A DNA stretch of 64,000 nt from Nitrospinota bacterium (GTDB lineage Bacteria > Nitrospinota_A > UBA7883 > JACRGQ01). Each line of letters begins with the position of its first letter. Within the stretch, counting starts at the first letter, position 1. Position numbers and translations under genes: made by a program. Location: positions 6,242 through 70,241 of the forward strand of contig JACQEX010000030.1 of NCBI GenBank assembly GCA_016200345.1, in the 5' to 3' direction. The notes under the pieces are model-generated. The model had not been told where the DNA came from. It saw only the letters and a program-made list of their open reading frames with translations, and made no database searches. Positions 1 to 29,597 of the stretch are shown one piece after another.

Positions 1-935
1 ACCGGCGGGCGGTGCGGGCGGCGGCGGAACGGGGCCTTTAGCACCATCTCCTTCACGTAGAGGTAAAAATCCCTCACATGGTTGTAAGTTGCGCTGTCGT
101 TCTTCAATATTTTTTTTGCCAATCCCATTATGGTTTTTCTAAGAAGGCCGGGGGTTGCGGCGGGAGCCTCCGCAACCGGAGCGCCAGCGGCGTTGTCCTG
201 ACTCCATTGTCGCAAATAAAAACTTTGGACGGGCACGACGTTCGAGCTAGAGTTCTCCTTTTTTCGCGCCACGAACCAAATGCCGAGGGCGTCCACCCCG
301 TCCCACCCGCCGATGGAGAGGTCGTCAATGCTTCCAGGGGAGTAGTTGTACACGTTCCATGGCCTGAATTTCTTGTGCGGGTCGTACTCAAAAAGGTAGG
401 ACTGCAGAACCTCGTACTTGTTCACCGTATAATAATCGTAGAAAAACGTCGGGCTGAACATATGAAACCCGTGGTCAACGTGATTACTGCTCGGGGAGGC
501 ATGGACGATAATTCCGCCGGGCTTAAGCATAAAGTGCATGTTGCGAAGAAGCTGTGGGACGTTAAAAACGTGCTCCGCGGTTCCGCCGTCGAATACGCAG
601 TCAAACTTTTCCCTTAGTGCCTCCGGCGCCGGTTCGTTTAAATCGAAGACGTGCGTCGGATCATCCGCCTCGACCAAATCAACGCTTGAAACCGAGTCAA
701 ACCCAAGCGACTTAAACAGCATTACGTCGTTCATCGCGGACGCTGGCTGGCTTTTATCGTCGTTTTGAACGGAGTCAATTATGGGAAGACTAAGGCCGAA
801 CTGTTTGGCGATAATCTTTACCTGTCCCCGCGAGACGTCCACGGTCTGCCTCCCAAGCTGACAAATGGTTCCGGTCAGAGGCACCTTTGTCTTCAAATCA
901 AACCATAATTTGACGCCCGATCTTCTAAGAGCCAT
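1..935 (-). CDS. Class I SAM-dependent methyltransferase, partial (3' end lies beyond the window start)
   Basis: Hand translation of the minus strand from ATG at 935..933, preceded by an AAGGGG RBS. The frame stays open to position 1 and is absent from the ORF track because no stop falls inside the window. It contains FDCVFDGGTAEHVFN and MLKPGGIIVHASP methyltransferase motifs. The listed + ORF 78..617 is antisense to it. Confidence 0.45.
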   Translation of the reverse strand, partial: MALRRSGVKLWFDLKTKVPLTGTICQLGRQTVDVSRGQVKIIAKQFGLSLPIIDSVQNDDKSQPASAMNDVMLFKSLGFDSVSSVDLVEADDPTHVFDLNEPAPEALREKFDCVFDGGTAEHVFNVPQLLRNMHFMLKPGGIIVHASPSSNHVDHGFHMFSPTFFYDYYTVNKYEVLQSYLFEYDPHKKFRPWNVYNYSPGSIDDLSIGGWDGVDALGIWFVARKKENSSSNVVPVQSFYLRQWSQDNAAGAPVAEAPAATPGLLRKTIMGLAKKILKNDSATYNHVRDFYLYVKEMVLKAPFRRRPHRPP

Positions 936-981
936 ATTCAGATTCCCCTTACTTGGTGATTGGTTGCCACGCGCGGGCCGG

Positions 982-2514
982 TCATTTTGCCGTAACAATG
1001 GCGATGTCGCCGACGTTCCCCGGTGGAAGGACTTTTTTATCGGTTAAATTGGCATTGGCCGCCTTGCCCGTCGCCTGAAGCGCCCTCTGCAACGTGCTTT
1101 TGCGAATGGAGGCTAGCTCGTCGAGCGTGACGCCCATCATCCGCGCAATCTTGGCCCTTTTCTCCTCGTTGGTGAAATTTAACCTGTCCCACTCAAACGC
1201 CCGAAGAATCGTCAATTGTGCGACAGAGAACTCTTCCGTGGAAATGGCGGCCAGCCCCCATCCGATGTCCGAGAAATCGAAGTCCTTGGACAGATAGCCA
1301 CCCGCTACGGCCATGTTGAAAAGCTCAGTTCCCGGATAGGGGGTGGCAATATTTATCTTCGTGTAGTCGGAGTTCATTTCTTCGGCGACCCTGATTGAAT
1401 GCCGTATTTCCTCCCATGTCTCTCCGGGAGAGCCTATGACCCACAGGCTTGTGGTGTCCATCCCAAGCTCGCGGGCCGTGTCGAGCATTTTCTTTGCGTG
1501 AGTGAGGTTAACCGGTTTCCTAATTATTTCCTTTAGAACCCGCGGCACCCCGGATTCCACGGCTATAGACAGATACACGCAACCAGATTCCTTCATCAAA
1601 GCTAGAAGCTCCTCGCTAAGGAAAAACTCGCTCACGTTGGCCGCGTTCCACGCGACGGGCAGTTTGCGCGCGATCATTTCCTTAAAAATTCCGACCGCAC
1701 GGGAGCGGTTGCCAAGAAAATTGTCGTCCAAAAACTCAATGGCGCGAATTCCGTGCTTGTCAATGAGCCATTCAATCTCGTCAACGACGCGCTTTGCCGA
1801 TTGGAAACGGGTCTTCCCGCCCGAAATCGTCTCGACCTGGCAAAAGGTGCACCCTATTGGACAACCCCGGCTGGTAATCATCTTGGCGTACGGAAGGGCG
1901 CGCGGAGCGTCCACTATGTGCTTGAATGACTCGTTGGCGTAGCGGTCGAAATCAATCAGGTCGTTTGACGGAAAAGGGAGGGCGTCGAGGTCTTTGATGA
2001 AATGAACCTGCCGACGAATGTCCGGTTTGTCTCCGGCCATGCGGGCTACCCCCTCCGCCGGAAACTCGCCGTTGCCCTCGATGAAATCAAGAAGTTTTGG
2101 AAATACGTATTCCCCCTCGCCAAGAACGGCAAAGTCCACGTTGGGATTGCGTATGACGTCGAGCGGCCTTGTGGTCGCGCAGACCCCGCCCATGACGGTG
2201 ACTATGCCCGGATTTACCGATTTAACGGCGCCGACGGCCTTTAGCCCGGTCACCAGATATTCGTTTGCCAGCACTGACACTCCGACCACGTCGGGCGCCC
2301 AGCTTTTCACCAAATCCGAAAACTTTTCCGGGCTGTGGTCCTCCAGATTGCTGTCCACTATGCGAACGTCGTACCGCCCCTTTGGCAACGCGGATGCCAG
2401 CAGGGTCAGCGGGTACGGATGCAGATGCCAGAACGAACCTTCGCTCAGCCACTTTGAGTTTGGAGTAACCAGCATTATTTTCTTTATTTGGCCCATATTA
2501 TTTCCCAATTTCAC
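982..2514 (-). CDS. B12-binding (class B) radical SAM protein
   Basis: 510 aa. N-terminal Rossmann-like B12-binding region (IVDSNLEDH...VVGVSV) followed by a CPIGCTFCQ CxxxCxxC radical SAM motif. Confidence 0.8.
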   Translation of the reverse strand: MKLGNNMGQIKKIMLVTPNSKWLSEGSFWHLHPYPLTLLASALPKGRYDVRIVDSNLEDHSPEKFSDLVKSWAPDVVGVSVLANEYLVTGLKAVGAVKSVNPGIVTVMGGVCATTRPLDVIRNPNVDFAVLGEGEYVFPKLLDFIEGNGEFPAEGVARMAGDKPDIRRQVHFIKDLDALPFPSNDLIDFDRYANESFKHIVDAPRALPYAKMITSRGCPIGCTFCQVETISGGKTRFQSAKRVVDEIEWLIDKHGIRAIEFLDDNFLGNRSRAVGIFKEMIARKLPVAWNAANVSEFFLSEELLALMKESGCVYLSIAVESGVPRVLKEIIRKPVNLTHAKKMLDTARELGMDTTSLWVIGSPGETWEEIRHSIRVAEEMNSDYTKINIATPYPGTELFNMAVAGGYLSKDFDFSDIGWGLAAISTEEFSVAQLTILRAFEWDRLNFTNEEKRAKIARMMGVTLDELASIRKSTLQRALQATGKAANANLTDKKVLPPGNVGDIAIVTAK

Positions 2515-2953
2515 CTAATTCATATTTGACCATCAGTTTGTTTATGGCGTCGGTCATGAATGTCAGCGGTATCAAATCCATGTTCCTTTCAAGTTTTGCG
2601 GAAAATAGACTTTTTGTCAGAATGTCGCGCACGGAAAAAAGTCCCATATCCTGCCCCTCCTTAAGCACCGGTTTGTCCTTCAACTCGCAATAAAAGGCGT
2701 GCGCAAGAGTGTTGCCAACCTCGGGCAGGACGTTTGTGTACAGCCAAGCAAGTCCGACGGCCTCTATCTCGAGTTCCTCGTACAGTTCCCTTCTGGCGGC
2801 CTCCTCCGGGGTCTCGCCGTCCTCGACGGCCCCTCCGAAAAAACCCCATTTGCCCGGAAATATAATCTCTTCCTTGAAATCACGCAGTTGTAGCAGTACG
2901 TTTTGGCCCGACAAGGGGAGAATTACGACGACTTCCTTCGGGACTATTGCCAC
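2498..2953 (-). CDS. NUDIX hydrolase
   Basis: Nudix box GKWGFFGGAVEDGETPEEAARRELYEELEIEA. Start uncertain: the track ORF begins at TTG 3037, overlapping the upstream gene by 94 nt; GTG at 2953 is a more conservative start. Confidence 0.65.
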   Translation of the reverse strand: MAIVPKEVVVILPLSGQNVLLQLRDFKEEIIFPGKWGFFGGAVEDGETPEEAARRELYEELEIEAVGLAWLYTNVLPEVGNTLAHAFYCELKDKPVLKEGQDMGLFSVRDILTKSLFSAKLERNMDLIPLTFMTDAINKLMVKYELGEIGK

Positions 2954-3801
2954 GGCATTTCGGTCTTGCAACTCGCGAACAACATTCCTTCCTTGTAGGT
3001 TACCGGCATTTGGGACAACTCCCGCACTCTTTTCCAATTATTTTTTTGCGAAAAGAGGTTTACGCCTTCTTTGTTTAAATGGTTGAAAACCTCCTCGGCG
3101 TTTTTGGCGTTCTCTATCTCGATGAGCCCGTCCGTCTTTTCCCAATGGGACTTTTTCGTCTGGGTGATAATCGTCGCCTCGTGTCCCTCGACGTCCATTT
3201 TTACCAAGTCCGCCCATGCAAACAGGGGGTTCATCGGTTGCAGATTAACCTCAAAGCGCTCCAACTCGCCGTAGGGGTTGGCCTTTGAACCCGCCAAATG
3301 ACTGCCCGTGGTGTTGCCCAAAACGCGCACAAACTCCATCTTCCCCTCGCTGACCGAAACGGCCATGTTATGGCATTCCACCTTTGAACATTCGTTGGCC
3401 TTTAAATTGCGCTTCAACACCTCAAAGGTTTTAGGATCCGGCTCGAAACACCTCACCTCAAAGCCGCATTTGGAGAAGATAACGGAGTGAAGCCCGATAT
3501 TCGCCCCCACGTCCGCAACCCGCTTATATCGTCCCCTATTAAGGTGGTAGAAACTGAAAAGAATTAGCTCGTCCAGATTGAACAGATCCAATGAGTCAAT
3601 GGCCCCCATTTTGTAATATGGAAACACAATTTCCCCGAACGGCCCGAACTTCTTCGGCGCGTCCCCCTTGTCGGAAAAAGACGCCTCCACCTCTTTGCGG
3701 GCGGAAATTTGCAACACCTCGTACAGCTTGGAGCCGCGCGAATGGTGGGCCGAAACCGTGGGCAGGGCGCTTAAAAGGCTTTCAAAAAAAGAATTTTCCA
3801 T
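2944..3801 (-). CDS. FkbM-family methyltransferase
   Basis: VADVGANIGLHS and KMDVEGHE motifs, typical of the FkbM family. Confidence 0.75.
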   Translation of the reverse strand: MENSFFESLLSALPTVSAHHSRGSKLYEVLQISARKEVEASFSDKGDAPKKFGPFGEIVFPYYKMGAIDSLDLFNLDELILFSFYHLNRGRYKRVADVGANIGLHSVIFSKCGFEVRCFEPDPKTFEVLKRNLKANECSKVECHNMAVSVSEGKMEFVRVLGNTTGSHLAGSKANPYGELERFEVNLQPMNPLFAWADLVKMDVEGHEATIITQTKKSHWEKTDGLIEIENAKNAEEVFNHLNKEGVNLFSQKNNWKRVRELSQMPVTYKEGMLFASCKTEMPWQ

Positions 3802-3816
3802 TTTTCTCCTTTAAGA

Positions 3817-4902
3817 CTAGACGAAATTGACGTGATCCGGCGGATGGGTGAGGGCCCACAAAAACTCGTTGATGGCGTGCGTGCGGCAATTGGTGTAGCA
3901 GTCCTTGTGCACGTCAATTAGTTTGACCTTTTCAACCACCTCCCAATAGCGTTCGCTCTCGAAAATCTCCTTGAACGACTTTTCCACCAAGTCCCCCATG
4001 CGATACTCCTCCTCGTGATTTTCGAAAAAGTCGCCGCACGGATAGAGCCGCCCGTTGCCGCTGGAATAAAGCAAAAACGGAACGCCAAGGCACTGGTCGT
4101 AGGTCCTTACCCCTTTGTTCTGCACCTTGTTCCATTTAACGGTCACCTGGTAGTTGTCCGTGGTCTGCTTTTCCGCGTCGCTAAGGATGCTGGTGAAGCC
4201 CTCGTACTCGTCGAGCCGTTTATAAATGCCCAGGGCGTTGTACACCGTGTCCCCGCATTGTTTTACCACCAGATAATCCACGCCCAGCTCCTTGCCGAGT
4301 TTTGCGAGGCCGACCACCTGGTCCACGTCGTTGGGGGTAAGTACCATTTGCAGGCCGATGGTTACCTTGAGGCCTTTTTTTTGCTTCATCTCCACGCAAA
4401 ACCGAATTTTCTTCACCAGCGTGGCAAATTCCTTGCTCCCGTGTATGCGGCGATACCCAGCGTCGTCGGCGGCGCTTATGTTGAACCTTAGCCAGCTAAG
4501 GCGCTCCAAGGCCTCCTCCCCCTGCTTGCCGGTGTCCCAAAGCACGCCGTTGGTGCCGATGGATATGTCCACCCCAGCGTCCGTGCCGGCCACGACCGCC
4601 TCGTACACCGCAGGGTTCAGCAGAGGCTCGGACTCGCCGATAAACGCCATCGAGCGCACGCCGATGGCGCCGGCGTCCCTTACGTACCGCAACAGCGCGT
4701 CGCGCGGGAACACGACCTCGGACCCCTTTCTGTAAAGGTTGCCCTGAACCGCGCCAAAACAGTAGTCGCATTTGATGTTGCATCCCTTGCTCAGGCCGAC
4801 GTCAATGTGCAAAGGCGCCACCCTTTTACCCTGTTTCCAATCGTTGACTCTCTCAAGATGCCAAATAAGTTTGTGCCCGTCCATTACGTATCTGTCTTTC
4901 AC
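3817..4902 (-). CDS. Radical SAM protein (non-B12, Cys-rich SPASM-like C-terminus)
   Basis: CNIKCDYC CxxxCxxC motif near the N-terminus and a C-terminal Cys cluster. Paralog of the protein at 7994..9061, sharing the C-terminal DHVNF[VI] tail. Confidence 0.8.
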   Translation of the reverse strand: MKDRYVMDGHKLIWHLERVNDWKQGKRVAPLHIDVGLSKGCNIKCDYCFGAVQGNLYRKGSEVVFPRDALLRYVRDAGAIGVRSMAFIGESEPLLNPAVYEAVVAGTDAGVDISIGTNGVLWDTGKQGEEALERLSWLRFNISAADDAGYRRIHGSKEFATLVKKIRFCVEMKQKKGLKVTIGLQMVLTPNDVDQVVGLAKLGKELGVDYLVVKQCGDTVYNALGIYKRLDEYEGFTSILSDAEKQTTDNYQVTVKWNKVQNKGVRTYDQCLGVPFLLYSSGNGRLYPCGDFFENHEEEYRMGDLVEKSFKEIFESERYWEVVEKVKLIDVHKDCYTNCRTHAINEFLWALTHPPDHVNFV

Positions 4903-4907
4903 TTTCG

Positions 4908-5774
4908 TTACCTTTCAATAAAATTTAGGCCGTTGCAATATTCGCCGACCGCGTCGCGCCACGGTCGAAGCAATTTGATTTTTTCCGAGTTGAGCGCCGT
5001 TTTTGTGTTCTTTTTCCCGATCGAGGGAAAGTCGTTGTGCGAGACCTTCTCCACTTTTACGTCCTTGGCGCCTATTCGCGCGACGACCTCAACAATAAGG
5101 TCGTGCAACGAGGCCGTCCCCTCGTTCACCACGTGATACACCCCAAAGTCCGGGCCGGACTCCACTATCCTGCGAACCTCGCGGCCCACGTCCCTGCTGT
5201 AGGTCGGCGAGGCAAAAATATCCCCTGAAATTTTAAGCGCCTTCGCGCCGTCCCTGATTTTTTGAATCATGTTTTCGACAAACTGCCCGGTCTGTTTTGT
5301 GGTTTCCCCGAAAAGTATGGAGACGCGAATTATGTAATACCGTTTAGCCCACGCCTGTATCATGCAGTCGCCGCCGTATTTGGTCATGCCGTAAATGCTC
5401 ACCGGCCTCGCGGCGTCGCTCTCCACGTATCTATCACCCTTGCCGTCGTCAAACACGGCGTCCGAGCTAAAATGGACGAGAAGAAACCCTAATTCGTTCG
5501 ATAGCTCCGCCAAAAGTTTTGGGAACAACACGTTCAGCCTGAAGGCCGCCTCAGGGTTCTTTTCGCTCGGATCAATGCCCAAAAACGCCACGGTGTTGAA
5601 AACAATATCGGGCTTTGCTTCCTCTATCACTTTTCGCGTTTGGGCAAAATCCTCCGCCTTGAACCCTTTGCTGTTGAGTCCCGTCACGGAATATCCGCCC
5701 GTAAAAGCCGAGGTCAGGGCCAGGCCCAACTTGCCGGTATTTCCAAGAATGAGAACCTTAGGGCTTTTTGACAA
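4908..5774 (-). CDS. RmlD-like NAD(P)-dependent sugar nucleotide reductase (extended SDR)
   Basis: VLILGNTGKLG glycine-rich N-terminus and YGMTK (YxxxK) catalytic motif. Length and pattern resemble dTDP-4-dehydrorhamnose reductase. Confidence 0.65.
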   Translation of the reverse strand: MSKSPKVLILGNTGKLGLALTSAFTGGYSVTGLNSKGFKAEDFAQTRKVIEEAKPDIVFNTVAFLGIDPSEKNPEAAFRLNVLFPKLLAELSNELGFLLVHFSSDAVFDDGKGDRYVESDAARPVSIYGMTKYGGDCMIQAWAKRYYIIRVSILFGETTKQTGQFVENMIQKIRDGAKALKISGDIFASPTYSRDVGREVRRIVESGPDFGVYHVVNEGTASLHDLIVEVVARIGAKDVKVEKVSHNDFPSIGKKNTKTALNSEKIKLLRPWRDAVGEYCNGLNFIER

Positions 5775-6678
5775 TTTTAAACTCCGATGTAATCGCCCTG
5801 CGTATCTCCGACGCGGATATCCCGTAGTGCTCCCTCATTCCCAAATTGTTTTTTATTTTGTGAATGTACTCGTTTTTAACGCCGAGCTTTCTCAATTTGA
5901 CGTCCACGCCGTTTTCAATAATCCATTCGGCCATGATTGAACCAAGTCCGCCCTGGACGTAGTGCTCCTCCACGGTTATTACGGTTCTTGTATTTTTAAG
6001 CAGTTTTTTCAACCCGCTAAAATCCCCCTCGGTGAGCATCGGAACGGAGATTAACTGCGGCCTGGCCTTAAGCCCCTCGACGGCCTGCATAACCTCAATC
6101 CCGACGGAGCCGTGGAACAAAACGGTCACGCCGCTTCCCTTTTTCACCACTATGGGGGACTCCACGCTTTTCACTTTCTCAGAGTGTATTTTTGGCTCGC
6201 CGTACTTCGCAAGCCTGATGAACGCCGGTTTTTTGCTTTTTATCGCATATTTGGCGCACAATTCTGCCTCCAGCGGGTCGGCGGGGGAGAGCACCACAAG
6301 CCCCGGCAGTGTCCGGGCAACCCCCACGTCCTCGACGGAATAATGGGTGTGCCCCTGCGGTGCGTAGGTTACGCCGCTACCGATGCCGATAAGTGTGACG
6401 GGTAGCTTTTGGTAGCAGAGGTCGTTTCGCACCTGTTCGTAGCATCTGTAGAGCACAAACGGCGTGATGTTATACACAAAAACGTTGTATCCGGCCATGG
6501 CGAGACCGGCTGAAAAGCTAATCATGTTCTGCTCCGCCACGCCGAGGTTGAGGTAACGCTCCGGGAATTTTTTTTGAAATTCGTCCAAAACCCCGAAACC
6601 GGCGTCGCCGGTGACCACGAAAATGCTTTTTTCCTTCTCGGCGGCCTTGGTTATTGTGTCAATGACCGTGTTTCTCAT
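5758..6678 (-). CDS. Transketolase, C-terminal (pyrimidine-binding) subunit
   Basis: 306 aa, split transketolase B subunit pattern (FVVTGDAGFG, LNLGVAEQNM). Overlaps the N-terminal subunit gene by 4 nt. Confidence 0.8.
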   Translation of the reverse strand: MRNTVIDTITKAAEKEKSIFVVTGDAGFGVLDEFQKKFPERYLNLGVAEQNMISFSAGLAMAGYNVFVYNITPFVLYRCYEQVRNDLCYQKLPVTLIGIGSGVTYAPQGHTHYSVEDVGVARTLPGLVVLSPADPLEAELCAKYAIKSKKPAFIRLAKYGEPKIHSEKVKSVESPIVVKKGSGVTVLFHGSVGIEVMQAVEGLKARPQLISVPMLTEGDFSGLKKLLKNTRTVITVEEHYVQGGLGSIMAEWIIENGVDVKLRKLGVKNEYIHKIKNNLGMREHYGISASEIRRAITSEFKIVKKP

Positions 6679-7493
6679 TCCGCCGCCAGTTCTTCGAGGG
6701 CCTGTTTTTTAAACTCGTCCGTCACGATGAAATAATGCCATTTCATCTCGTTTTCCATGAAGGAAACTCCCTTCCCCTTGATGGTTTTTGCGATGATTAT
6801 TTTTGGTTTGCCGTTGGACGGTGCGTCCAATGCGCCGATTAGCTGGCGGTAATCATGGCCCCCCACTTCGTAAACCTGCCATCCGAACGCCTCCCACTTG
6901 GCCCTGACCGGCTCGTAATGGCAAATTTCCGTCGGGCGGCCGTAACCCTGAAGGTTGTTGTAGTCCAATAGCACCGTGAAGTTGTCAATTCCAAGCTTCG
7001 GGGCGAACAACGCCCCCTCCCATATCGAGCCTTCCTGCGACTCGCCGTCGCCTATGACGCTATAGACGTTTCGATTTTCACCCTTTTGTTTGAACACGTA
7101 CGCCATGCCCAATCCCATGTTGAACCCGTGACCAAGCGAACCGACCGACGCCTCGATTGCCTTGTTCGTAAACCGGTCAAGGTGGGCCGGTAGTTTGCCG
7201 TTGTTCTGAAGATATTGGAAAAGGTCGGGCTTGCTTATAAATCCCCTCAGCGTCAGGTTGGCGTAAAGCGCCATCGCCGAGTGCCCCTTACTGAGAATGA
7301 AAATATCCCGATTCTTCCAATCCTTCGGGTCTATTCGCAACTTATAAAAATAGAGCGTCGTAATCATGTCTACGCACGAAAGGGACGAGCCGATGTGCGC
7401 GCTTTTGGACTTGTTGGCAATTTCTATCATAAGCCGGCGAGCCTCGCGCGCCTTGGTCGAAATCAGTTTTTCCTCGGACTCTAGATTATCCAT
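6675..7493 (-). CDS. Transketolase, N-terminal (TPP-binding) subunit
   Basis: 272 aa, SAHIGSSLSC...GHGF...GDGESQEG transketolase TPP-binding motifs. Confidence 0.8.
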   Translation of the reverse strand: MDNLESEEKLISTKAREARRLMIEIANKSKSAHIGSSLSCVDMITTLYFYKLRIDPKDWKNRDIFILSKGHSAMALYANLTLRGFISKPDLFQYLQNNGKLPAHLDRFTNKAIEASVGSLGHGFNMGLGMAYVFKQKGENRNVYSVIGDGESQEGSIWEGALFAPKLGIDNFTVLLDYNNLQGYGRPTEICHYEPVRAKWEAFGWQVYEVGGHDYRQLIGALDAPSNGKPKIIIAKTIKGKGVSFMENEMKWHYFIVTDEFKKQALEELAAE

Positions 7494-7523
7494 TTTAAAT
7501 ATTTGCCGACTTGCGTTTTCCGA

Positions 7524-7979
7524 TTAATCGGCGCGCCCGGGCCCTTTCACGTATTGGTCCACGTATTCAAGCGTTTTAAGGTCATGTTCAATCATTTTTA
7601 ACCGGCGAGATTCTTCCACGTTAAACCAGCCATACCCCTGTCCTTCCCCCAAAATAATAGGAGTAACCCCGTCGTATCTTTCTACAAAAACGTTCAAATG
7701 ACATTCGACGGATTCTAACACAACGTCTTTGTGCAAAACAAAGCGCGGGAATTTTAGTTGGTATCCCAGTTCTTCCAAGGCCTCCCTTTTCACCGCGTCC
7801 TCGGCGGTTTCGGCCCCCTCGATGCTCCCCCCGAAAAACGCCCAGTATCCCGGAAGCCGTTCCGCGTCCTCGGTTCGATGTTGCAACAAATATTCGTGCT
7901 CGTCGTTGTGCAAAATCACAAGCGCGGCATTTATGGGCCTACGTCCGACCTTGGTTGTTCCCTCGCCATTTTTCGTCAA
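7524..7979 (-). CDS. NUDIX hydrolase
   Basis: Nudix box GGSIEGAETAEDAVKREALEELG. Confidence 0.7.
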   Translation of the reverse strand: MTKNGEGTTKVGRRPINAALVILHNDEHEYLLQHRTEDAERLPGYWAFFGGSIEGAETAEDAVKREALEELGYQLKFPRFVLHKDVVLESVECHLNVFVERYDGVTPIILGEGQGYGWFNVEESRRLKMIEHDLKTLEYVDQYVKGPGRAD

Positions 7980-7993
7980 ATTAAAATTCCTTG

Positions 7994-9061
7994 TTAGATA
8001 AAGTTAACGTGGTCAATCGGGTTTTTCAAATCCCAGATGTAACGGTTCACGGCGTCCATCCGGCAGTTCAGCCTGCATTCGCAGAGGTCAAGCTCCTCGT
8101 GAACCCACTTAAGCGACTTCATGCGCGCCTCCCCCTCCCAAATTTCCTTGAAGGTGTTGTCGTTTATGTTGCCGTATTTGAACCGTTCGTCCAGCAAAAA
8201 TTCCGCGCAACCCCACACAAAACCGCCCGCGTCGATGTAGGACCAAAAAGGGAGGGCGTGGCATTTTTTATAGTTGCGCGACCCCTCGTCCCATTTCTGC
8301 ATCGCGTTCGACCGGAAGATGACGCGAAAGTCCGGCGTGTTGAGTTTTTCAAGCTCCGGGCCGAGATACATATAATCCGTATACTTTACGTTCTCGTACT
8401 GGTGCGTGATGCTGTTCGGCATCTGCGAATACGGTTTTATTACAAGGTAGTCCATCCCCGCGTCACTGGCGACGCGGGCGAGGGTGACGGCCTCGGCATG
8501 ATTTTCGGGGAGTAGAATCATCTGCATGCCAAGCGTGCAACGATAGCCCTTTTCGTCCCTCACCTTTTTGGCGTACACCATGTTCTTAACCGCCTTGTCG
8601 AAGTCGGCGGGCTTCGTCCGGTGCACTTTTGAATATGTGTCCGGCGTTCCGGCGTTGATGCTCACTTTTATCCATTCCACGTGGCCGAGAATCTCGTCGG
8701 CTATTTCTTCCTTAAAAAGAACGGCGTTGGTCGTTATGCCAACGTCTATCCCCGATTTTTTGGTGTGCACGATTATCTGTGCGATGTCCTTGTGCAAAAA
8801 GGGCTCCCCGTCCCCGGCGTACATGATGCTTTTCAGGCCCAGGGCACCCATCTCGGTCAGGCGCTCCATAAATATCTTTGTGTCCAGATAACGCTTTTGG
8901 TACCCCATGAAATCCTTGCCGCAGTAGGTGCATCGGTGGTTGCACGGGCCGGAGGGGCTGATCTCCATATAAATGGGGTAGATATTTTTGCCGTCAAGCC
9001 ACTCCGAGACCCTTTTGGGGTGAAACATCAGCTTGTGGCTGTCTATCCTAAACTTATCCAT
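7994..9061 (-). CDS. Radical SAM protein (non-B12, SPASM-like), paralog of 3817..4902
   Basis: CNHRCTYC motif. Collinear with the 3817..4902 protein, including the C-terminal CECRLNC cluster and DHVNFI tail. Confidence 0.8.
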   Translation of the reverse strand: MDKFRIDSHKLMFHPKRVSEWLDGKNIYPIYMEISPSGPCNHRCTYCGKDFMGYQKRYLDTKIFMERLTEMGALGLKSIMYAGDGEPFLHKDIAQIIVHTKKSGIDVGITTNAVLFKEEIADEILGHVEWIKVSINAGTPDTYSKVHRTKPADFDKAVKNMVYAKKVRDEKGYRCTLGMQMILLPENHAEAVTLARVASDAGMDYLVIKPYSQMPNSITHQYENVKYTDYMYLGPELEKLNTPDFRVIFRSNAMQKWDEGSRNYKKCHALPFWSYIDAGGFVWGCAEFLLDERFKYGNINDNTFKEIWEGEARMKSLKWVHEELDLCECRLNCRMDAVNRYIWDLKNPIDHVNFI

Positions 9062-9632
9062 TTCTCGCCGCTAAAATAACGTCCAGAATGCAGTGGCAGA
9101 TTGCGGTGTGCAGTATCTCTACAGGCCCGTAGGCGCTGTCCGGCACATAAAAATTTACGTCGCCGAGTTTTGAAAGCGGATTGTCTTTTACAAATCCGGA
9201 CAACGTTATCACCTTGCATTTTTTGGCGCGGGCCGCATCCACGCCCCTTATTATGTTCTCCGATTTCCCGGAACTGCTTATCGCCACAAGCACGTCCCCC
9301 TCTTCGGCGAACATCTCGATGGGCTTCTCAAAAAGATGCTTGAAGCCGTAATCGTTTCCGATGCAGGTGAGAACGGACGAGTCGTTAAAGGCCACGGCCC
9401 GCATTCCGCCGTTTTTCCAAAAATCCGTGGACATATGGCTTGAGATGGACGCGCTGGCCCCGTTGCCGATGAACATAAGCTTCTTCCCGGCGTTGGTTTG
9501 GGCGACGACGAGTCCGCACGCCTCCGCAATCCCGTCGTGAAGGGAATCAAGCCGCTCGGCCCCGCGGGAGGCGGACATGGAATCCATGGCCTTCTTAAGG
9601 TTGTTGAAATAGGCTGTCGAAAGTTTTTGCAT
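9054..9632 (-). CDS. gmhA: Sedoheptulose-7-phosphate isomerase (SIS domain, GmhA-like)
   Basis: Collinear with E. coli GmhA across the SIS core (FIGNGASAS...CIGNDYGF...GDVLVAISSSGKS...KVITLSG). Confidence 0.7.
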   Translation of the reverse strand: MQKLSTAYFNNLKKAMDSMSASRGAERLDSLHDGIAEACGLVVAQTNAGKKLMFIGNGASASISSHMSTDFWKNGGMRAVAFNDSSVLTCIGNDYGFKHLFEKPIEMFAEEGDVLVAISSSGKSENIIRGVDAARAKKCKVITLSGFVKDNPLSKLGDVNFYVPDSAYGPVEILHTAICHCILDVILAARNG

Positions 9633-9642
9633 ATTTTCTCCG

Positions 9643-11187
9643 CTACTTCATTATCGTATGAATAAATTCCAACAGTTCATGTTTTTCGACCGATTTTTTG
9701 TTGCCGACTATCTGCACCGCAAGCGCGCCGACCACGTTCCCTATAAATGAGACCAATTCCATCGGCAGGCCGGAGGCGAGGCACGGCGCGGTGTATGCGA
9801 AAAAGGCGTCCCCCGCGCCGACGGTGTCCACGACCTTGGAGGTGAAGATCGGCGTGGAACTCAGCTCCCTCTTTTCGTTTATCCCTATGGATCCCCTTTT
9901 GCTCATCGTAACAATGACGTTGGCGGCGTTGATGACTTTTGACATTTTTTTTATTATGTCGTCCACGCTTCCAAACTTGTCCTGCGAGGCCAGCCGAACC
10001 TCCCCCTCGTCCAGGCAGACGAAAAACGGGTTGCTGTACTTGGTTATAAGGTTGTAGCCGGTGTTGGCCCCGTTGCTTTGGGTGTTGATTCCAAACCGAA
10101 CGCCGGACTCCTTGACCGCCTCGTAAATCTTTTGCGTTATGAAGCCGTGGCCAAAATCGGAGATTAAAACCACATCGTACCCCTTGGCCGTTTCCTTTAT
10201 GTGCGAGACAATTTTAGACTCAAGGTCTCCCTTCACGTATTCGTCGTTAAGATAGTTAACCTCGAACAGCTTTTGGTTGTTTTGTTGCTGTATGTACCTT
10301 TTCTTTATGATGGTCGGGCCGTCGGCGCGCGTGAAGAATTTCGCGTTGACTCCCGGCTTAAGATTTCTGGAGACAAACTCCTCCCTGGAGTCATGGGAAC
10401 CGAGGAGCGAGACAAGATGAACCTCCTTGCAAAAACCTGCGATATGGTTTGCGATTGCAAACGCGCCCCCGGCGAAAATCTCCTGGGATAGATATTTGTT
10501 CACCACCAGGTTCGCCTTGGAGGAACGACCAAGGGGCGTGGTGTAAAAATATTCGTCAATGATGCCGTCACCCACCAGCAAAACCTTCATGTCCTTAAGG
10601 TCGTCTATCGCCTTGGCGATCTGTTCAAAACTGTATTTTCGCTTAAAATCCCCCAAATACCTTTTTGTCTCCGGCGGATAATCGTCCAGAAAACTGTTGA
10701 TGACGTTTGAAGAGCTAAACGAGATGCCCGACGTCTGGCGTATGTCCACCTGCCCGAACAGCAGGGATTTCTCCGCCTCGGAAAGTTTTTCGTCTATGTT
10801 TCTCTGCGACGCCCTGTAGGACTGCCCCTTTGCAAAAATATCTGGCTTGATTGTCTTTAGGCACTCGTAGGTTATTTCGTCGTCCACAAGGCAAACGTAG
10901 TCCACCTGCGAGCAGGTGGCCGCGATTACGGCCCGCATCTCCTCCGGGAAAATGGGCCTTCCGGGGCCGAGCTTCACGTCCTTGTCCTTTACCACCGCGA
11001 CAACAAGCACGTCGCCAAGGGCCTTGGCGTCCTCGAGGTGCATGACTATTCCCGGATGTATGATGTCGTAAACTCCGAGACTGAGCACGACTTTTTTGCC
11101 GCCCGCCTGTAGCTCGCGCACCTTGGCTATAAGGTCGGACACCAACAAAATTTTAGGATGCTTGGGATTCAGTTTATAACCTGCCAT
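9643..11187 (-). CDS. Bifunctional sugar-phosphate nucleotidyltransferase / PfkB-family sugar kinase (HldE-like, domain order inverted)
   Basis: N-terminal cytidylyltransferase-fold (VYDIIHPG, HxGH-like) followed by a ribokinase/PfkB domain with the C-terminal DTVGAGDAF signature. E. coli HldE has kinase first, then adenylyltransferase. Confidence 0.7.
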   Translation of the reverse strand: MAGYKLNPKHPKILLVSDLIAKVRELQAGGKKVVLSLGVYDIIHPGIVMHLEDAKALGDVLVVAVVKDKDVKLGPGRPIFPEEMRAVIAATCSQVDYVCLVDDEITYECLKTIKPDIFAKGQSYRASQRNIDEKLSEAEKSLLFGQVDIRQTSGISFSSSNVINSFLDDYPPETKRYLGDFKRKYSFEQIAKAIDDLKDMKVLLVGDGIIDEYFYTTPLGRSSKANLVVNKYLSQEIFAGGAFAIANHIAGFCKEVHLVSLLGSHDSREEFVSRNLKPGVNAKFFTRADGPTIIKKRYIQQQNNQKLFEVNYLNDEYVKGDLESKIVSHIKETAKGYDVVLISDFGHGFITQKIYEAVKESGVRFGINTQSNGANTGYNLITKYSNPFFVCLDEGEVRLASQDKFGSVDDIIKKMSKVINAANVIVTMSKRGSIGINEKRELSSTPIFTSKVVDTVGAGDAFFAYTAPCLASGLPMELVSFIGNVVGALAVQIVGNKKSVEKHELLEFIHTIMK

Positions 11188-11189
11188 TT

Positions 11190-11660
11190 TTATCTCTTCA
11201 AAAAATGTTCGTTAAGCAATTTTGTGGAGGAGAAAACAATCTCGTGGGTGAATCTCAATTCGGCCCCGATTTCTTGGATGACTTTTGCCTCCCTCTGGAT
11301 TTTGCCGGTCTTGTCCTCCAGTTTCTCAAACTCCTGCCCCTTCACGTAAATATCGGGCCTTAGCAACCTAAGCGTCTCCTCCGCGGTCGGCCATTTGTTG
11401 ACGGCCACGTAGTCAACGCACTCCAACGCCGCAATGGATTCGGCGCGCAAGTCCTGATTGTAAACCGGCCTCCCCGGCCCTTTATCAACATATTTGTCCT
11501 CGGTAAGAGTCACCACCAGCACGTCCCCGAATTTTTTGGCCGCCTGAAAATATTTGATGTGTCCCGGATGCAACAGGTCAAAACAGCCGTGGCAGTGCAC
11601 AATCTTCTTTCCCGACGATTTCAATTCCTTTATCACCGGGGCGAGGGCGTCCAAATCCAT
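11190..11660 (-). CDS. Cytidylyltransferase-fold protein (TagD/RfaE domain II-like)
   Basis: HCHGCFDLLHPGH nucleotidyltransferase motif. Start set at the internal ATG 11660 (MDLDALAPV), which has a GGAGGA RBS 13 nt upstream; the longer track ORF would overlap the upstream gene by 230 nt. Confidence 0.65.
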   Translation of the reverse strand: MDLDALAPVIKELKSSGKKIVHCHGCFDLLHPGHIKYFQAAKKFGDVLVVTLTEDKYVDKGPGRPVYNQDLRAESIAALECVDYVAVNKWPTAEETLRLLRPDIYVKGQEFEKLEDKTGKIQREAKVIQEIGAELRFTHEIVFSSTKLLNEHFLKR

Positions 11661-11665
11661 TATTT

Positions 11666-12676
11666 TCAACGTCTCCTCCCCTTTGCGGTTGTGGCGAGCG
11701 GCCCGCGTTCGAACCGGTTTATTTGCGACCACAACTCCGGAATCGTGTCGCCGTGCCGCCCCTTCACGTAAAAGCTCTCGCCGCCGTCCTGCACCGTCCT
11801 CACCAACATCGTCTTCCACGGCCTGAAATAATACTGTGCGTCGCTCTTTTTCGGCTCCTTCCCGACGTCGCCGGAAAGTTGGTGAAGGTCGCACACCAGC
11901 GTCGAAAATTTTGCTATTCTCCCTCGCTTCTGCCGGGCGATGTTTCGCGCCATGCTCAGCGCCTTCAGGTAAATTTCTGGCGCCATCACGGAACTTCCGA
12001 AATTCATGGCGACCCCGCCCTCAAGGTTTTGAACGACCGAGGCGTACCTTAAAAAATCGTTGTACGACAACGCGCCTGTTGCAGCGCCGTCGCAATTTGG
12101 GTGCTCGTGCAATATGTCGTACCCTATTCCCACGTGGATGGTAACCGGTATGCCGAGCCGGTAGCCCGCGGCAAGCACGCTTATCTCCTTGTGCGGGAAA
12201 TTGCCATTTTCAATCACCCCGCCGATCGCCTCGCCCATCCCGACCTTTTTGTCCTTTTTATGCGCCTTGTTTATGTGGTCGTTTAAAAATCCGGTTTCCT
12301 TCCAAAGGCCGAACTCGCCGCGCCGTATATATTTACTAACGCTTTCCGTCGTGGCGCCAATCAGCGCAAACTCATAATCGTGAATCATCCCGGAGCCGTT
12401 AAACGCGAGGCAGGACACATATCCGCGCTCCATGAGGTCAATTAAATACCGCTGAACGCCGTCCCGCAAAACGTGGCCCCCCGCCATCAGTATCACCGAC
12501 CTTCCGTTGCGGCGCGCCCTTACGATTCGTTTCCCAACCTCCGCCAAAGAGTTGTTGCCGCATGGAACCGGGTTCAAACCCATAATCGCGCCGACGTTTA
12601 GGTCGTTGACCCTTTTGCCAAGGTCTTTGACGAGCAATTTTTTCCTGTCAATCATCTTGTTCATCTTCCGGGTCAA
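11666..12676 (-). CDS. Deoxyhypusine-synthase-like protein (tentative)
   Basis: Segment SVILMAGGHVLRDGVQRYLIDLMERGYVSCLAFNGSGMIHD aligns by eye with the DHS motif [35 protein letters not shown]. The assignment comes from memory only. Confidence 0.35.
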   Translation of the reverse strand: MTRKMNKMIDRKKLLVKDLGKRVNDLNVGAIMGLNPVPCGNNSLAEVGKRIVRARRNGRSVILMAGGHVLRDGVQRYLIDLMERGYVSCLAFNGSGMIHDYEFALIGATTESVSKYIRRGEFGLWKETGFLNDHINKAHKKDKKVGMGEAIGGVIENGNFPHKEISVLAAGYRLGIPVTIHVGIGYDILHEHPNCDGAATGALSYNDFLRYASVVQNLEGGVAMNFGSSVMAPEIYLKALSMARNIARQKRGRIAKFSTLVCDLHQLSGDVGKEPKKSDAQYYFRPWKTMLVRTVQDGGESFYVKGRHGDTIPELWSQINRFERGPLATTAKGRRR

Positions 12677-13818
12677 CCTTGGGCGCCTTGAAACTCTTTT
12701 TTCAAAGGCACCCCCAGTTTTTGCATTAATTTAACGAACCTGGTGTTGCCCGGGTCGTAGTGCATTATTTTTTCCATTGTTTCACGGCTGGATTTCAACC
12801 ACTCTTCCTCCCCGACTCTTTTCAAATATCCAAGAATCCTTACGACCTCTTCTTCCGAGGGAATATTCGACCAGAAAGGCCCCGAATCCCCGATGCGGGC
12901 CGGCCAGCCAAAATCAAACGCATCACCAAACTCGCTTATCAAACGCTTTCGAAACGTAAAGAGCGCGGTCTTTATTCCGCGCGCGGCGGTCTCGTACAAC
13001 AAATTCGACTCCGTGCCAACCACGTACTCGCTGGCGCAGGCCAGCTCGTAACTGCTCCACTTCCGTTTCCTCGGGGAATACGTCCACCCTTCCTTCCCAA
13101 GCAGGGTCTCGTATTTTTCCCTCTCTTCCGGGAATTCCGGGGCGCTCCGTCCGGCGACGAACAACTCAAAATTTGATTCGACGCAGAATTTCTTTAACAG
13201 CGGCAGGACGATGCGCTCTGATACCACAAATTCGTCCCATCCTATTATCCTCTTCGTGCCGGGCAGAACAACCAGGGACTCGTTTGGCTCGTAGACCGAC
13301 ACAAACACGACCCTGTTTTTTTTAATCGGCAAACCTGGAAATAAGTTGTTTCTAAAACATCCGATTATCTCGTAATTCCCGCGCACATATTCCTTATATT
13401 TTTCCCCTATCTCACGCGCGTGAACCAGCATGTAGTCAACCCGCCAGTCCTTGCCCTGTTTTATCTCGTCCATCGCGTCGAACGAGCGCCACCCGTTTTG
13501 TATGAAGACGGTGGTGATTTCCGGAAATGCCTTTTTTAGCGTGTAAAATCTGGGATTGTTGTCAATAAAGGTCAGGCAGACCCTCGGCGACACAAATCCG
13601 ACGTACAACTCGAAATAGTTTTTGCGGAGCAGGACGCTCAGTATTAGGACATAAAGGTTGAACGACTCCCCCCTTGTGTCCAAAATATGAACCCCCGCCG
13701 GATCCAAATACTCAAAAATTTCCTCGGATCCGACCCGGTCGAAAATGAGAATTTCCGCCTTTTGTGGTCTGCGAAAACCAAAACTACGGCTTTTTAAAAC
13801 CAGCCTGACCTTGCTCAC
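12673..13818 (-). CDS. Hypothetical polysaccharide biosynthesis protein (possible TagF-like/GT-B fold)
   Basis: 381 aa. C-terminal VVGTESNLLYETAARGIKTALF resembles the TagF/GT-B donor-binding segment. Weak. Confidence 0.3.
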   Translation of the reverse strand: MSKVRLVLKSRSFGFRRPQKAEILIFDRVGSEEIFEYLDPAGVHILDTRGESFNLYVLILSVLLRKNYFELYVGFVSPRVCLTFIDNNPRFYTLKKAFPEITTVFIQNGWRSFDAMDEIKQGKDWRVDYMLVHAREIGEKYKEYVRGNYEIIGCFRNNLFPGLPIKKNRVVFVSVYEPNESLVVLPGTKRIIGWDEFVVSERIVLPLLKKFCVESNFELFVAGRSAPEFPEEREKYETLLGKEGWTYSPRKRKWSSYELACASEYVVGTESNLLYETAARGIKTALFTFRKRLISEFGDAFDFGWPARIGDSGPFWSNIPSEEEVVRILGYLKRVGEEEWLKSSRETMEKIMHYDPGNTRFVKLMQKLGVPLKKEFQGAQG

Positions 13819-13895
13819 AAACGCGATTAACTTATCCTTAATGAAAAGCCCCCTTTTGGTTAAACTCAGTTATTTTTAGCGGCGAAAAAATCGCT

Positions 13896-15284: not shown

Positions 15285-15323
15285 CGTTTCTGCCTCATTA
15301 AAATAGATTTTGCGTTCGAGTCG

Positions 15324-16628: not shown

Positions 16629-16646
16629 TCGCGGACTATTGGGAGC

Positions 16647-20767: not shown

Positions 20768-20812
20768 TGGTTTAAAACCCTTTCCTGATTATTATTCGTT
20801 CTTGCCGGATTT

Positions 20813-22617: not shown

Positions 22618-22664
22618 TCGCGCCTCCCTATTCTTGTGCCGTTCATAAAATCAAACCACCCTTG

Positions 22665-24808: not shown

Positions 24809-24816
24809 GATGAAAC

Positions 24817-25572: not shown

Positions 25573-25594
25573 TTCCCCTCTATAATTTGACGTG

Positions 25595-29572: not shown

Positions 29573-29597
29573 TTTGTCAGATATTTCCGAAAGCCGC

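Follow-up and report, generated by a model that had tools for sequence, protein, structure and literature searches.

Here we describe a pair of radical S-adenosylmethionine (SAM) enzymes, rSAM-A and rSAM-B, encoded in a 64,000-nucleotide (nt) stretch of a Nitrospinota bacterium genome (assembly GCA_016200345.1, contig JACQEX010000030.1, positions 6,242 to 70,241; hereafter, the window). The two proteins belong to a conserved, uncharacterized superfamily of twitch-type radical SAM enzymes in which clade B, represented by rSAM-B, lies between heptose-type sugar genes and a thiamine diphosphate (ThDP)-dependent enzyme, and clade A, represented by rSAM-A, is paired with an RmlD-like reductase. This arrangement is a widespread, unnamed radical SAM and ThDP sugar cassette, a variant within a known enzyme class; that it represents new sugar-building chemistry is, in our view, a real possibility, though less likely than not.

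The pair is encoded by two open reading frames (ORFs) with matches to PF04055 and PF13186:

3817..4902, minus strand: rSAM-A, twitch-type radical SAM enzyme of 361 amino acids (aa)
7994..9061, minus strand: rSAM-B, twitch-type radical SAM enzyme of 355 aa, the constant core of the cassette

An initial annotation of this DNA had described these ORFs as collinear radical SAM paralogs lacking a B12-binding domain, and had proposed a pairwise alignment, hidden Markov model searches and a survey of the tail family across genomes; all three were run. BLASTP aligned residues 3-361 of rSAM-A with residues 2-355 of rSAM-B, a global and collinear match (29% identity, 56% positives, E 2e-65), too strong by far to be due to chance; it bears out the description. 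Membership in the radical SAM superfamily is supported by PF04055 scores of 42 bits (rSAM-A) and 70 bits (rSAM-B), and PF13186 (SPASM) scores of 28 and 30 bits exceed the cut-off of 21.5; these generic domains are the only ones that Pfam gives. Neither protein matches the B12-binding domain PF02310 in Pfam, which is present in four other window proteins. The CxxxCxxC motif, correctly placed near residue 40, was verified at the nucleotide level at 4759..4782 in rSAM-A (residues 41-48) and 8921..8944 in rSAM-B (residues 40-47), as were the terminal HVNFV of rSAM-A (3820..3834) and HVNFI of rSAM-B (7997..8011). Four auxiliary-cluster Cys lie within 3886..4092 and 8063..8263, respectively. We start rSAM-A at a GTG codon at 4902; the NCBI call is 355 aa, and the 361-aa form suits the family better because homologs span 100% of it. 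Each protein is 100% identical to a "radical SAM protein" entry of a Nitrospinae/Nitrospinota metagenome-assembled genome.

Calling the pair duplicated, as the initial annotation did, is misleading. rSAM-A and rSAM-B represent two ancient ortholog groups that co-occur in many phyla, each 64-66% identical internally across phyla and 32% identical to the other. A recent tandem duplication is ruled out, as the identity between A and B (29-32%) falls far short of that within each clade. We fetched 80 rSAM-B loci from many phyla and extracted the second radical SAM genes from them to define clades, which yielded at least four paralogous groups (A, B, C and D) with a common layout and terminus. Sequences of one clade share a median 63-72% identity, and sequences of different clades 19-43%; clade C is ~40% identical to A, and clade D ~20-25% identical to the rest.

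Residue conservation was assessed in a 63-sequence alignment spanning all four clades (rSAM-B numbering). K10, P29, C40, C44, C47, N112, C267, C285, C329, C333, H351 and F354 are invariant (63/63), and every chain stops one residue past the Phe. The clade consensus tails read PPxHVNFV (A), PPxHVNFI (B), xPMHxNFI (C) and DxxHLxFV (D). The terminal tail shared by the window pair is therefore real but not special to it, being common to four clades, in which all 63 sequences keep H(-4) and F(-1). An N-terminal D-x-H-K-L-x-x-H-x-x-R-V motif is common to clades A-C, and its Lys is invariant in all four. Judged from these sequences, the superfamily can be defined by the invariant Lys, CxxxCxxC, a C-x17-C...C-x3-C block and a terminus of exactly H-x-x-F-[IV]. 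Both ends are modeled poorly in the predicted structure, with a predicted local distance difference test score (pLDDT) below 50 for residues 1-12 and 348-355, too low for the tail to be placed. A third candidate from the window was rejected as a member of the tail family: the SPASM-type radical SAM protein at 28478..29683 (minus strand, ~364-401 aa, beside a TylF methyltransferase and a short-chain dehydrogenase/reductase [SDR]) is collinear with rSAM-B (21% identity, E 3e-17) and ends ...DCPDDALI, without the terminus.

The survey of the tail family placed it in many phyla with a recurrent neighborhood, the carriers being mostly uncultured anaerobes. rSAM-B has 4,801 database relatives, of which the best 120 are almost all 355 aa long and 62-69% identical, and derive from Thermodesulfovibrionales, Omnitrophota, Brocadiaceae, Scalindua and others; rSAM-A has 1,943, with best matches 65-79% identical. 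In a scan of one genome per species, 411 species genomes carried a clade-B relative, among them Nitrospirota, anammox and other Planctomycetota, Omnitrophota, Elusimicrobia, Desulfobacterota, candidate phyla radiation (CPR) bacteria, Actinomycetota, Fibrobacter and archaea. Clade B from Ca. Methanoperedens and other archaea is still 59-66% identical, and the family overall 59-69% identical across phyla. An exhaustive HMMER search of 1.84 billion cluster representatives (50% identity clusters) recovered 466 at E <= 1e-30. Members are mislabeled as "GTP 3',8-cyclase" (several, at JGI), "cyclic pyranopterin phosphate synthase" or "SPASM protein".

Searches of a phage collection found distant relatives only (<=27% identity), and the plasmid collection likewise, except for Solidesulfovibrio carbinolicus DSM 3852, whose plasmid pDCAR1 encodes an rSAM-B ortholog (C3Y92_RS20620; WP_129356079.1) 54.5% identical to rSAM-B. 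This 133-kb plasmid of a cultured sulfate reducer (NZ_CP026539.1; locus L089) carries its cassette at 12895..17065 in the order NeuB-family gene, nucleotidyltransferase-PfkB fusion, a hypothetical protein at the position of GSU2086, SIS, the rSAM-B ortholog and two further radical SAM genes. On the opposite strand are transketolase N and C genes, FabG and methyltransferases; pseB/pseC/pseF and the NeuB-family gene lie beside the cassette, and the record has four places that match rSAM-B. The distant relatives include proteins of the 735-kb uncultured megaphage records LR756501.1 and LR756503.1 (27% identity over >90% of the length) and of 32-36-kb plasmids of Brachyspira hyodysenteriae (21% identity over >90% of the length).

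The cysteine pattern points to the enzyme class. A full SPASM domain is recognized by a seven-to-eight-Cys motif, C-x9-15-G-x4-C ... C-x2-C-x5-C-x3-C ... C, that holds two auxiliary [4Fe-4S] clusters. Despite the PF13186 match, the C-x2-C-x5-C-x3-C block is absent from the 63-sequence alignment, and the conserved C-terminal Cys are four only: C267, C285, C329 and C333, spaced C-x17-C ... C-x3-C (63/63, four clades). The internal Cys cluster noted at first is thus present in both proteins, but it consists of exactly four invariant Cys and not of a seven-Cys SPASM motif. Because only these four are invariant, rSAM-A and rSAM-B appear to be one-cluster twitch enzymes and not full SPASM enzymes. 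A twitch domain is a shortened form of the SPASM domain that binds a single auxiliary cluster; in BtrN this cluster has four Cys ligands and the reaction is a two-electron oxidation, and in MoaA, where it has three Cys and leaves one Fe site open, the reaction is redox-neutral overall (PMC9012708).

Within this class, the proteins are not PqqE, an anaerobic sulfatase-maturing enzyme (anSME), MoaA or a member of any other curated family. No NCBIfam model comes near its cut-off for clades A-D, all scores lying at 25-100 bits against cut-offs of 180-650. The top match in all four clades is TIGR04317, a tungsten-cofactor oxidoreductase radical SAM maturase, at 63-100 bits against 380. The anSME model TIGR03942 gives 28.9 bits for rSAM-A against 349, and rSAM-B is not among the matches listed; PqqE (TIGR02109) gives 37.7 bits (A) and 36.3 bits (B) against 381, with no pqq genes nearby. 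Scores are similarly low for MoaA (TIGR02666/TIGR02668; 37-53 bits against 231-325, and four invariant Cys in our proteins), DesII (TIGR04426; 30-38 against 450) and BlsE (TIGR04466; 26-36 against 400), and the missing PF02310 sets both proteins apart from cobalamin-dependent (class B) radical SAM methyltransferases. The solved relatives found by sequence are BlsE, MoaA and DesII only (E 3e-7 to 2e-4), with no close solved structure, and fold searches rank DesII and BlsE nearest, with SuiB, SkfB and anSME also high. DesII and BlsE act on nucleotide- or nucleoside-linked sugars. Literature searches on radical SAM enzymes with heptose, transketolase, nucleotide-sugar, branched-chain sugar and anammox S-layer glycan themes found no paper on the family. 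We conclude that this is almost certainly a distinct, uncharacterized enzyme family.

The strongest contextual signal, absent from the initial annotation, is the near-obligate coupling of rSAM-B to a ThDP enzyme. Genomic context was derived in two ways, by searching the 80 loci with the window genes (tblastn) and by separate de novo clustering of ORFs near rSAM-B, and both agree on the core order: where present, a GSU2086-family gene and a 158-aa nucleotidyltransferase; then a nucleotidyltransferase-PfkB fusion, SIS, rSAM-B, a two-subunit ThDP enzyme and a variable module. Upstream of rSAM-B, among the 62 loci with at least 3 kb of flank, we counted the nucleotidyltransferase-PfkB fusion in 41, SIS in 32, a glycosyltransferase family 9 (GT9) heptosyltransferase-like gene in 13, and either the fusion or GT9 in 54; the SIS gene is immediately upstream in 28 loci. 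Downstream, a ThDP enzyme lies within 5.5 kb on the same strand in 56 of the 67 loci with at least 2.5 kb of flank and is immediately adjacent in 46. Its type varies, being transketolase N/C in 39 loci and pyruvate dehydrogenase (PDH) E1-alpha/beta in 17, never both; an E1-alpha representative scores 340 bits on TIGR03182.

Clade A has an equally consistent partner. In 9/9 loci (the window, L006, L021, L069, L083 and L085-L088), the gene directly upstream of the rSAM-A ortholog (61-69% identity) encodes an RmlD-like reductase, and each of these loci also contains an rSAM-B relative and TktN/TktC in the same cluster, with the transketolase on the opposite strand in L086. In the window and in L006, L069 and L088, a Nudix gene separates rSAM-B from TktN. 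Clade C often adjoins a 258-aa GT2 glycosyltransferase (16/25); for clade D, the preceding gene encodes a 220-aa class-I methyltransferase in 9/19 cases. B12-radical SAM genes occur in ~30/80 loci and a 4,6-dehydratase-like SDR in ~40% of loci. Three loci (L045, L071 and L085) contain a transaldolase (TAL_FSA) with a HAD phosphatase; a GmhB-type phosphatase is usually absent. A functional tie to nonulosonic-acid synthesis was considered and rejected: only 5/80 loci have NeuB or a CMP-transferase close to rSAM-B, and these genes are merely co-located in glycan islands. No small ORF or gene for a ribosomally made, post-translationally modified peptide (RiPP) recurs among the partners in the 80 loci.

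Fusion proteins draw the same associations within single chains. Among the top 150 cluster representatives we found seven fusions: SIS with rSAM (P0244, 51% identical to rSAM-B), a nucleotidyltransferase with rSAM (P0265, P0274 and P0283), a class-I methyltransferase with rSAM (P0272), an intein with an HNH endonuclease domain inside the cluster motif, CNHRC-intein-SFC (P0277, 631 aa), and a ThDP enzyme with rSAM (P0289, 951 aa). In P0289, the N-terminal 570 residues form an acetolactate-synthase-type ThDP enzyme, and the C-terminal half is rSAM-B-like and ends ...HDNFI. The best PDB match of the ThDP half is 8rph ("Thiamine pyrophosphate-binding protein") at 353 bits, as against ~308 bits for acetolactate synthases, and this half falls below the NCBIfam acetolactate-synthase cut-off (463 against 538). 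By these matches, rSAM-B-type enzymes appear tied to three ThDP architectures plus nucleotide-activation enzymes.

Most SPASM and twitch enzymes are peptide or protein maturases, and an alternative is that rSAM-A and rSAM-B do not act on a sugar but introduce a modification into a small precursor peptide, or serve to activate or mature a neighboring enzyme. The best NCBIfam match is a maturase model (TIGR04317), many weak RiPP-maturase matches accompany it, and SuiB, SkfB and anSME rank high by fold. Yet these scores are all far below family cut-offs, and a single auxiliary cluster contrasts with the two of typical RiPP SPASM enzymes. Recurrent partners are without exception sugar-nucleotide, glycosyltransferase and methyltransferase genes, with no recurrent small ORF or RiPP gene, and the fusion partners are SIS, nucleotidyltransferase, methyltransferase and ThDP domains. 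We consider a maturase role highly improbable.

In the window, the cassette comprises the following genes around rSAM-A and rSAM-B:

11666..12676, minus strand: GSU2086-family protein (deoxyhypusine-synthase/ArgZ-like Rossmann fold), head of the cassette; NF052581, 363 bits against 250
11190..11660, minus strand: stand-alone nucleotidyltransferase (158 aa) with intact HPGH; rfaE_dom_II, 111 bits against 181.5
9643..11187, minus strand: PfkB sugar kinase fused to a cytidylyltransferase-like domain whose HxGH is degenerate ("HPGI"), HldE-like with reversed domain order; rfaE_dom_I, 119 bits against 345
9054..9632, minus strand: divergent GmhA-like SIS-domain isomerase (PF13580); gmhA models, 97-104 bits against 209-276; its stop overlaps the rSAM-B start by 8 nt
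7524..7979, minus strand: Nudix hydrolase (PF00293) between rSAM-B and the transketolase
6675..7493, minus strand: split transketolase-type ThDP enzyme, N-terminal ThDP-binding subunit (TktN); PF00456, 128 bits; NF004559, 213 bits
5758..6678, minus strand: split transketolase-type ThDP enzyme, C-terminal subunit (pyrimidine-binding and C-terminal domains; PF02779, PF02780), overlapping the TktN gene by 4 nt
4908..5774, minus strand: RmlD-like NAD(P)H-dependent sugar ketoreductase; PF04321, 191 bits; TIGR01214 rmlD, 190.8 bits against 224; 5-nt gap to rSAM-A
2944..3801, minus strand: FkbM-family methyltransferase (PF05050; TIGR01444, 92.6 bits against 37.7), directly downstream of rSAM-A
982..2514, minus strand: B12-binding radical SAM protein, putative C-methyltransferase (PF02310 and PF04055; no curated family reached), 3' end of the segment
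13896..15284, minus strand: B12-binding radical SAM protein (PF02310 and PF04055), upstream of the cassette

The neighbors named in the initial annotation are correct: the RmlD-like and FkbM genes flank rSAM-A, and the SIS/GmhA-like gene adjoins rSAM-B. Genes from 12676 down to 982 overlap or are spaced by <=30 nt, as would fit a single operon; in 1..16000, a scan for promoters and terminators gave counts at shuffle background and was uninformative. Heading the cassette with the GSU2086 gene is an LA_1612-family "putative O-antigen biosynthesis protein" (12673..13818, minus strand; TIGR04441, 328 bits). The FkbM protein probably performs an O-methylation tailoring step.

The initial annotation had also placed the pair on a heptose or 6-deoxyheptose scaffold. 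The sugar-nucleotide character of the segment stands, and the nearest curated families of its SIS, PfkB and nucleotidyltransferase proteins are GmhA and the two HldE domains; the heptose assignment itself is plausible but not proven, as the scores lie far below the equivalog cut-offs of the canonical ADP-heptose enzymes (gmhA, 104 against 209-276; rfaE_dom_I, 119 against 345; rfaE_dom_II, 87-111 against 181.5). The heptose nucleotidyltransferase (HENase) motif is (F/L)xxGxSTT (PMC11461863); in both nucleotidyltransferase forms of the cassette it is replaced by x-E-[IV]-V-F-S-S-T. The PfkB-fused form has lost the second His of HxGH (HPGI/V/M) in 16/17 cassettes with a separate 158-aa nucleotidyltransferase and has kept HxGH in 23/29 cassettes without one, a pattern that supports one active nucleotidyltransferase per cassette. 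In the window, the protein at 11190..11660 is probably the active sugar-1-phosphate nucleotidyltransferase. On balance, we favor a heptose-type sugar nucleotide or phosphate as the substrate. GSU2086-family genes occur in 19 of the loci (~60% identity), and in Geobacter such a gene lies between hldE and gmhA (PMC5585712). The idea that GSU2086 replaces the missing GmhB phosphatase was dropped; it is not anti-correlated with HAD, the two co-occurring in 2/3 HAD loci.

Domain and family scans found no nucleoside diphosphate (NDP)-sugar 4,6-dehydratase in the window's heptose segment, and another enzyme must therefore supply the carbonyl for the RmlD-like reductase and the ThDP enzyme. The four-Cys twitch site is of the carbinol-oxidizing kind. 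In known two-carbon branching, a ThDP enzyme (YerE, AviB1/AviB2) attacks an NDP-ketosugar and ketoreduction follows (PMC4753412). Because of these three points, we propose the order rSAM-B, then ThDP enzyme, then RmlD-like reductase with rSAM-A, within a tentative overall model in which the two radical SAM enzymes would tailor a nucleotide-activated heptose-type sugar bound for a surface glycan. The divergent GmhA-like isomerase, PfkB kinase and HldE-like nucleotidyltransferase would make the activated sugar. rSAM-B would then take a hydrogen atom from a carbinol carbon, and, in the manner of BtrN, the substrate radical would hand an electron to the auxiliary cluster with its full set of Cys ligands, giving a keto- or aldehydo-sugar. 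To this carbonyl the ThDP enzyme would add a two-carbon unit: glycolaldehyde in the case of the transketolase type, hydroxyethyl or acetyl from pyruvate in the case of the PDH-E1 or acetolactate-synthase type. In the window variant, the RmlD-like reductase and rSAM-A might act as a redox couple on the product, pairing radical oxidation or dehydration with NAD(P)H reduction for a net deoxygenation or epimerization in the manner of AprD4/AprD3, and the FkbM and B12-radical SAM methylations would come last. The conserved, probably mobile C-terminal tail could close over the active site. The specific catalytic roles given here to rSAM-A and rSAM-B are possible at best. Of the chemistries first listed for the pair, C-methylation is the least likely, because neither protein has a cobalamin domain while the same operon has separate B12-radical SAM and class-I/FkbM methyltransferases; dehydration and epimerization remain candidates, and oxidation joins them.

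The ThDP enzyme might have a humbler role: together with transaldolase in some loci, it could only feed sedoheptulose-7-phosphate or another precursor, with the radical SAM enzymes acting on a finished NDP-heptose as redox-neutral epimerases or dehydratases comparable to NeoN, HygY, DesII or AprD4, and without any mechanistic link to the ThDP enzyme. The window subunits do resemble true transketolase halves (213 bits on NF004559), cassettes L085, L045 and L071 include TAL_FSA and a HAD phosphatase, and an RmlD-like gene next to rSAM-A fits a dehydratase-plus-reductase deoxygenation with no ThDP step. But a PDH-E1 type replaces the transketolase in 17 loci and an acetolactate-synthase type is fused in P0289, and neither makes sedoheptulose-7-phosphate. 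Moreover, the ThDP gene adjoins rSAM-B far more often than it adjoins the SIS and kinase genes that would use its product, and GT9-type loci without their own SIS and kinase still keep rSAM-B. The three ThDP architectures and the fusions with activation enzymes argue that the ThDP enzyme serves as a carboligase specific to this pathway, as opposed to supplying sedoheptulose-7-phosphate as a housekeeping function. We judge a pure supply role unlikely.

The same two activities could also run in the opposite order, the ThDP enzyme acting first on a sugar phosphate or an SDR-made keto-sugar and rSAM-B then working on the newly added two-carbon ketol or acetyl group (radical rearrangement, oxidation, cyclization or C-C cleavage). 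Co-occurrence and fusion data apply equally here, since they give no reaction order; the ThDP domain is N-terminal in P0289, and ~40% of loci have an SDR able to make the acceptor carbonyl. Against this, nearly all operons place rSAM-B ahead of the ThDP genes, the window cassette lacks an SDR dehydratase that could provide the carbonyl, and the fusions of rSAM with SIS and with a nucleotidyltransferase link rSAM-B with the early, activating end of the pathway. We regard ThDP-first as quite unlikely.

Several observations weigh against the overall model in which rSAM-B oxidizes and the ThDP enzyme extends. Eleven of the 67 loci lack a nearby same-strand ThDP gene, although 5 of the 11 have a ThDP enzyme farther off or on the other strand, and the ThDP-rSAM fusion rests on one contig: P0289 is a continuous ORF on a single 4.4-kb contig. 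Every catalytic step is one that we infer, and the sequence of reactions is not fixed by gene order or by fusions. Because the GmhA/HldE-like scores are far below cut-offs and the HENase motif is altered, the sugar may be something other than a glycero-manno-heptose. The SDR in ~40% of loci could supply a keto group without rSAM-B, and the transaldolase and HAD loci fit a transketolase that only supplies sedoheptulose-7-phosphate. Neither of the nearest structural relatives is a simple dehydrogenase: DesII is a lyase and BlsE a decarboxylase. One Cys pattern is common to all four clades, which presumably differ in reaction, so the pattern does not fix the chemistry. Finally, the role of the tail is a guess, given its modeled pLDDT below 50.

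A bolder version of the oxidation-then-extension model holds that clade B oxidizes a nucleotide-heptose at an unactivated position, that a ThDP carboligase of three interchangeable architectures adds C2 to give C9 or C-branched heptoses, that clades A, C and D, B12-radical SAM enzymes and methyltransferases diversify these, and that H-x-x-F-[IV] is a new catalytic gating element. We offer this only as speculation and think it rather unlikely.

The surroundings of the cassette are rich in glycan genes. A ~30-kb minus-strand gene train runs from 30890 down to 982, and at its head lies a NusG-family paralog (30351..30890, minus strand), which could be an operon-specific antiterminator of the RfaH/LoaP kind for a long glycan operon. 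The same train includes an apparently complete nonulosonic-acid (legionaminic/pseudaminic-type) pathway (18675..26752, minus strand), comprising a DegT aminotransferase, a methyltransferase, NeuB, a hydrolyzing UDP-GlcNAc 2-epimerase, a CBS-nucleotidyltransferase, a CMP-transferase (CTP_transf_3), a class-III aminotransferase and a CN-hydrolase. Just upstream of the glycan operon, a 914-aa membrane protein (32142..34886, minus strand) has a weak PMT_2 match (dolichyl-phosphate-mannose-protein mannosyltransferase/ArnT-like) and is a candidate transferase using a lipid-linked sugar; a DPM1/ArnC-like 258-aa GT2 recurs in 33 related loci. The 64-kb window holds seven radical SAM genes, including three of the twitch/SPASM type. 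The four with B12-binding domains (982..2514, 13896..15284 and 16647..18671, minus strand; 37430..38815, plus strand) reach no NCBIfam cut-off, their best models being those for P-methyltransferase, HpnJ, BchE and ladderane lipids (130-166 bits).

Radical SAM enzymes that act on sugars are known from a handful of antibiotic pathways (BtrN, DesII, AprD4, BlsE and others), and our literature searches found none tied to heptose or primary cell-surface glycan biosynthesis. The superfamily described here is large, highly conserved (~60-65% identity between bacteria and archaea) and concentrated in lineages with almost unstudied envelopes. Its pairing with three ThDP architectures leads to a concrete hypothesis, open to testing, of a new way to form C-C bonds in sugar biosynthesis, and the cultured carrier S. 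carbinolicus DSM 3852 (pDCAR1) makes an experimental test practical. If the hypothesis is true, a large unseen class of surface-glycan sugars would exist in anammox bacteria, Omnitrophota, Nitrospirota, Elusimicrobia, CPR bacteria and Methanoperedens. Recognition of the family would also correct widespread misannotation.

Among known systems, the closest in cluster architecture are BtrN (2-deoxy-scyllo-inosamine dehydrogenase) and SpeY, which like rSAM-A and rSAM-B combine a radical SAM core with a truncated SPASM domain and a four-Cys site, C-x17/18-C ... C-x2/3-C; their two-electron oxidation of a carbohydrate-like carbinol substrate to a ketone is our reference chemistry (PMC9012708). DesII (TDP-4-amino-4,6-dideoxy-D-glucose deaminase/dehydrogenase) and BlsE (cytosylglucuronate decarboxylase) are only 15-17% identical to rSAM-A and rSAM-B; their deamination and decarboxylation differ from the proposed reaction, and DesII is ~110 residues longer. 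YerE, AviB1/AviB2 and paulomycin-type systems resemble the cassette in placing a ThDP enzyme inside a deoxysugar cluster, followed by a ketoreductase. Their range of ThDP architectures is similar too: the literature describes single-chain flavoprotein-type enzymes and E1-alpha/beta pairs in this role (PMC4753412), and those found here are E1-alpha/beta, transketolase N/C and a fused acetolactate-synthase type. These known systems differ in involving no radical SAM enzyme and in forming the acceptor keto group, on a hexose, by means of an SDR 4,6-dehydratase. No transketolase-type enzyme is known to us to branch or extend a nucleotide sugar. AprD4 and AprD3, a radical SAM diol dehydratase and an NADPH reductase, carry out C3-deoxygenation in apramycin, and the constant pairing of rSAM-A with an RmlD-like gene (9/9 loci) likewise joins a radical SAM enzyme genetically to a dedicated nicotinamide-dependent reductase. 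The ADP-glycero-manno-heptose pathway (GmhA, HldE, GmhB) supplies the nearest curated families for the cassette's SIS, PfkB and nucleotidyltransferase proteins, and a GT9 heptosyltransferase-like gene is a frequent neighbor; the cassette departs from it in its scores below cut-off, its reversed fusion order (nucleotidyltransferase N-terminal), its replaced motif and the usual lack of a GmhB-type phosphatase. MoaA (GTP 3',8-cyclase) differs from rSAM-A and rSAM-B in its three-Cys auxiliary cluster, as against four invariant Cys, and in its tail motif, but shares the twitch class and acts on a nucleotide. In crystals its conserved extreme C-terminal tail is disordered, yet catalysis requires it, which sets a precedent for a functional tail.

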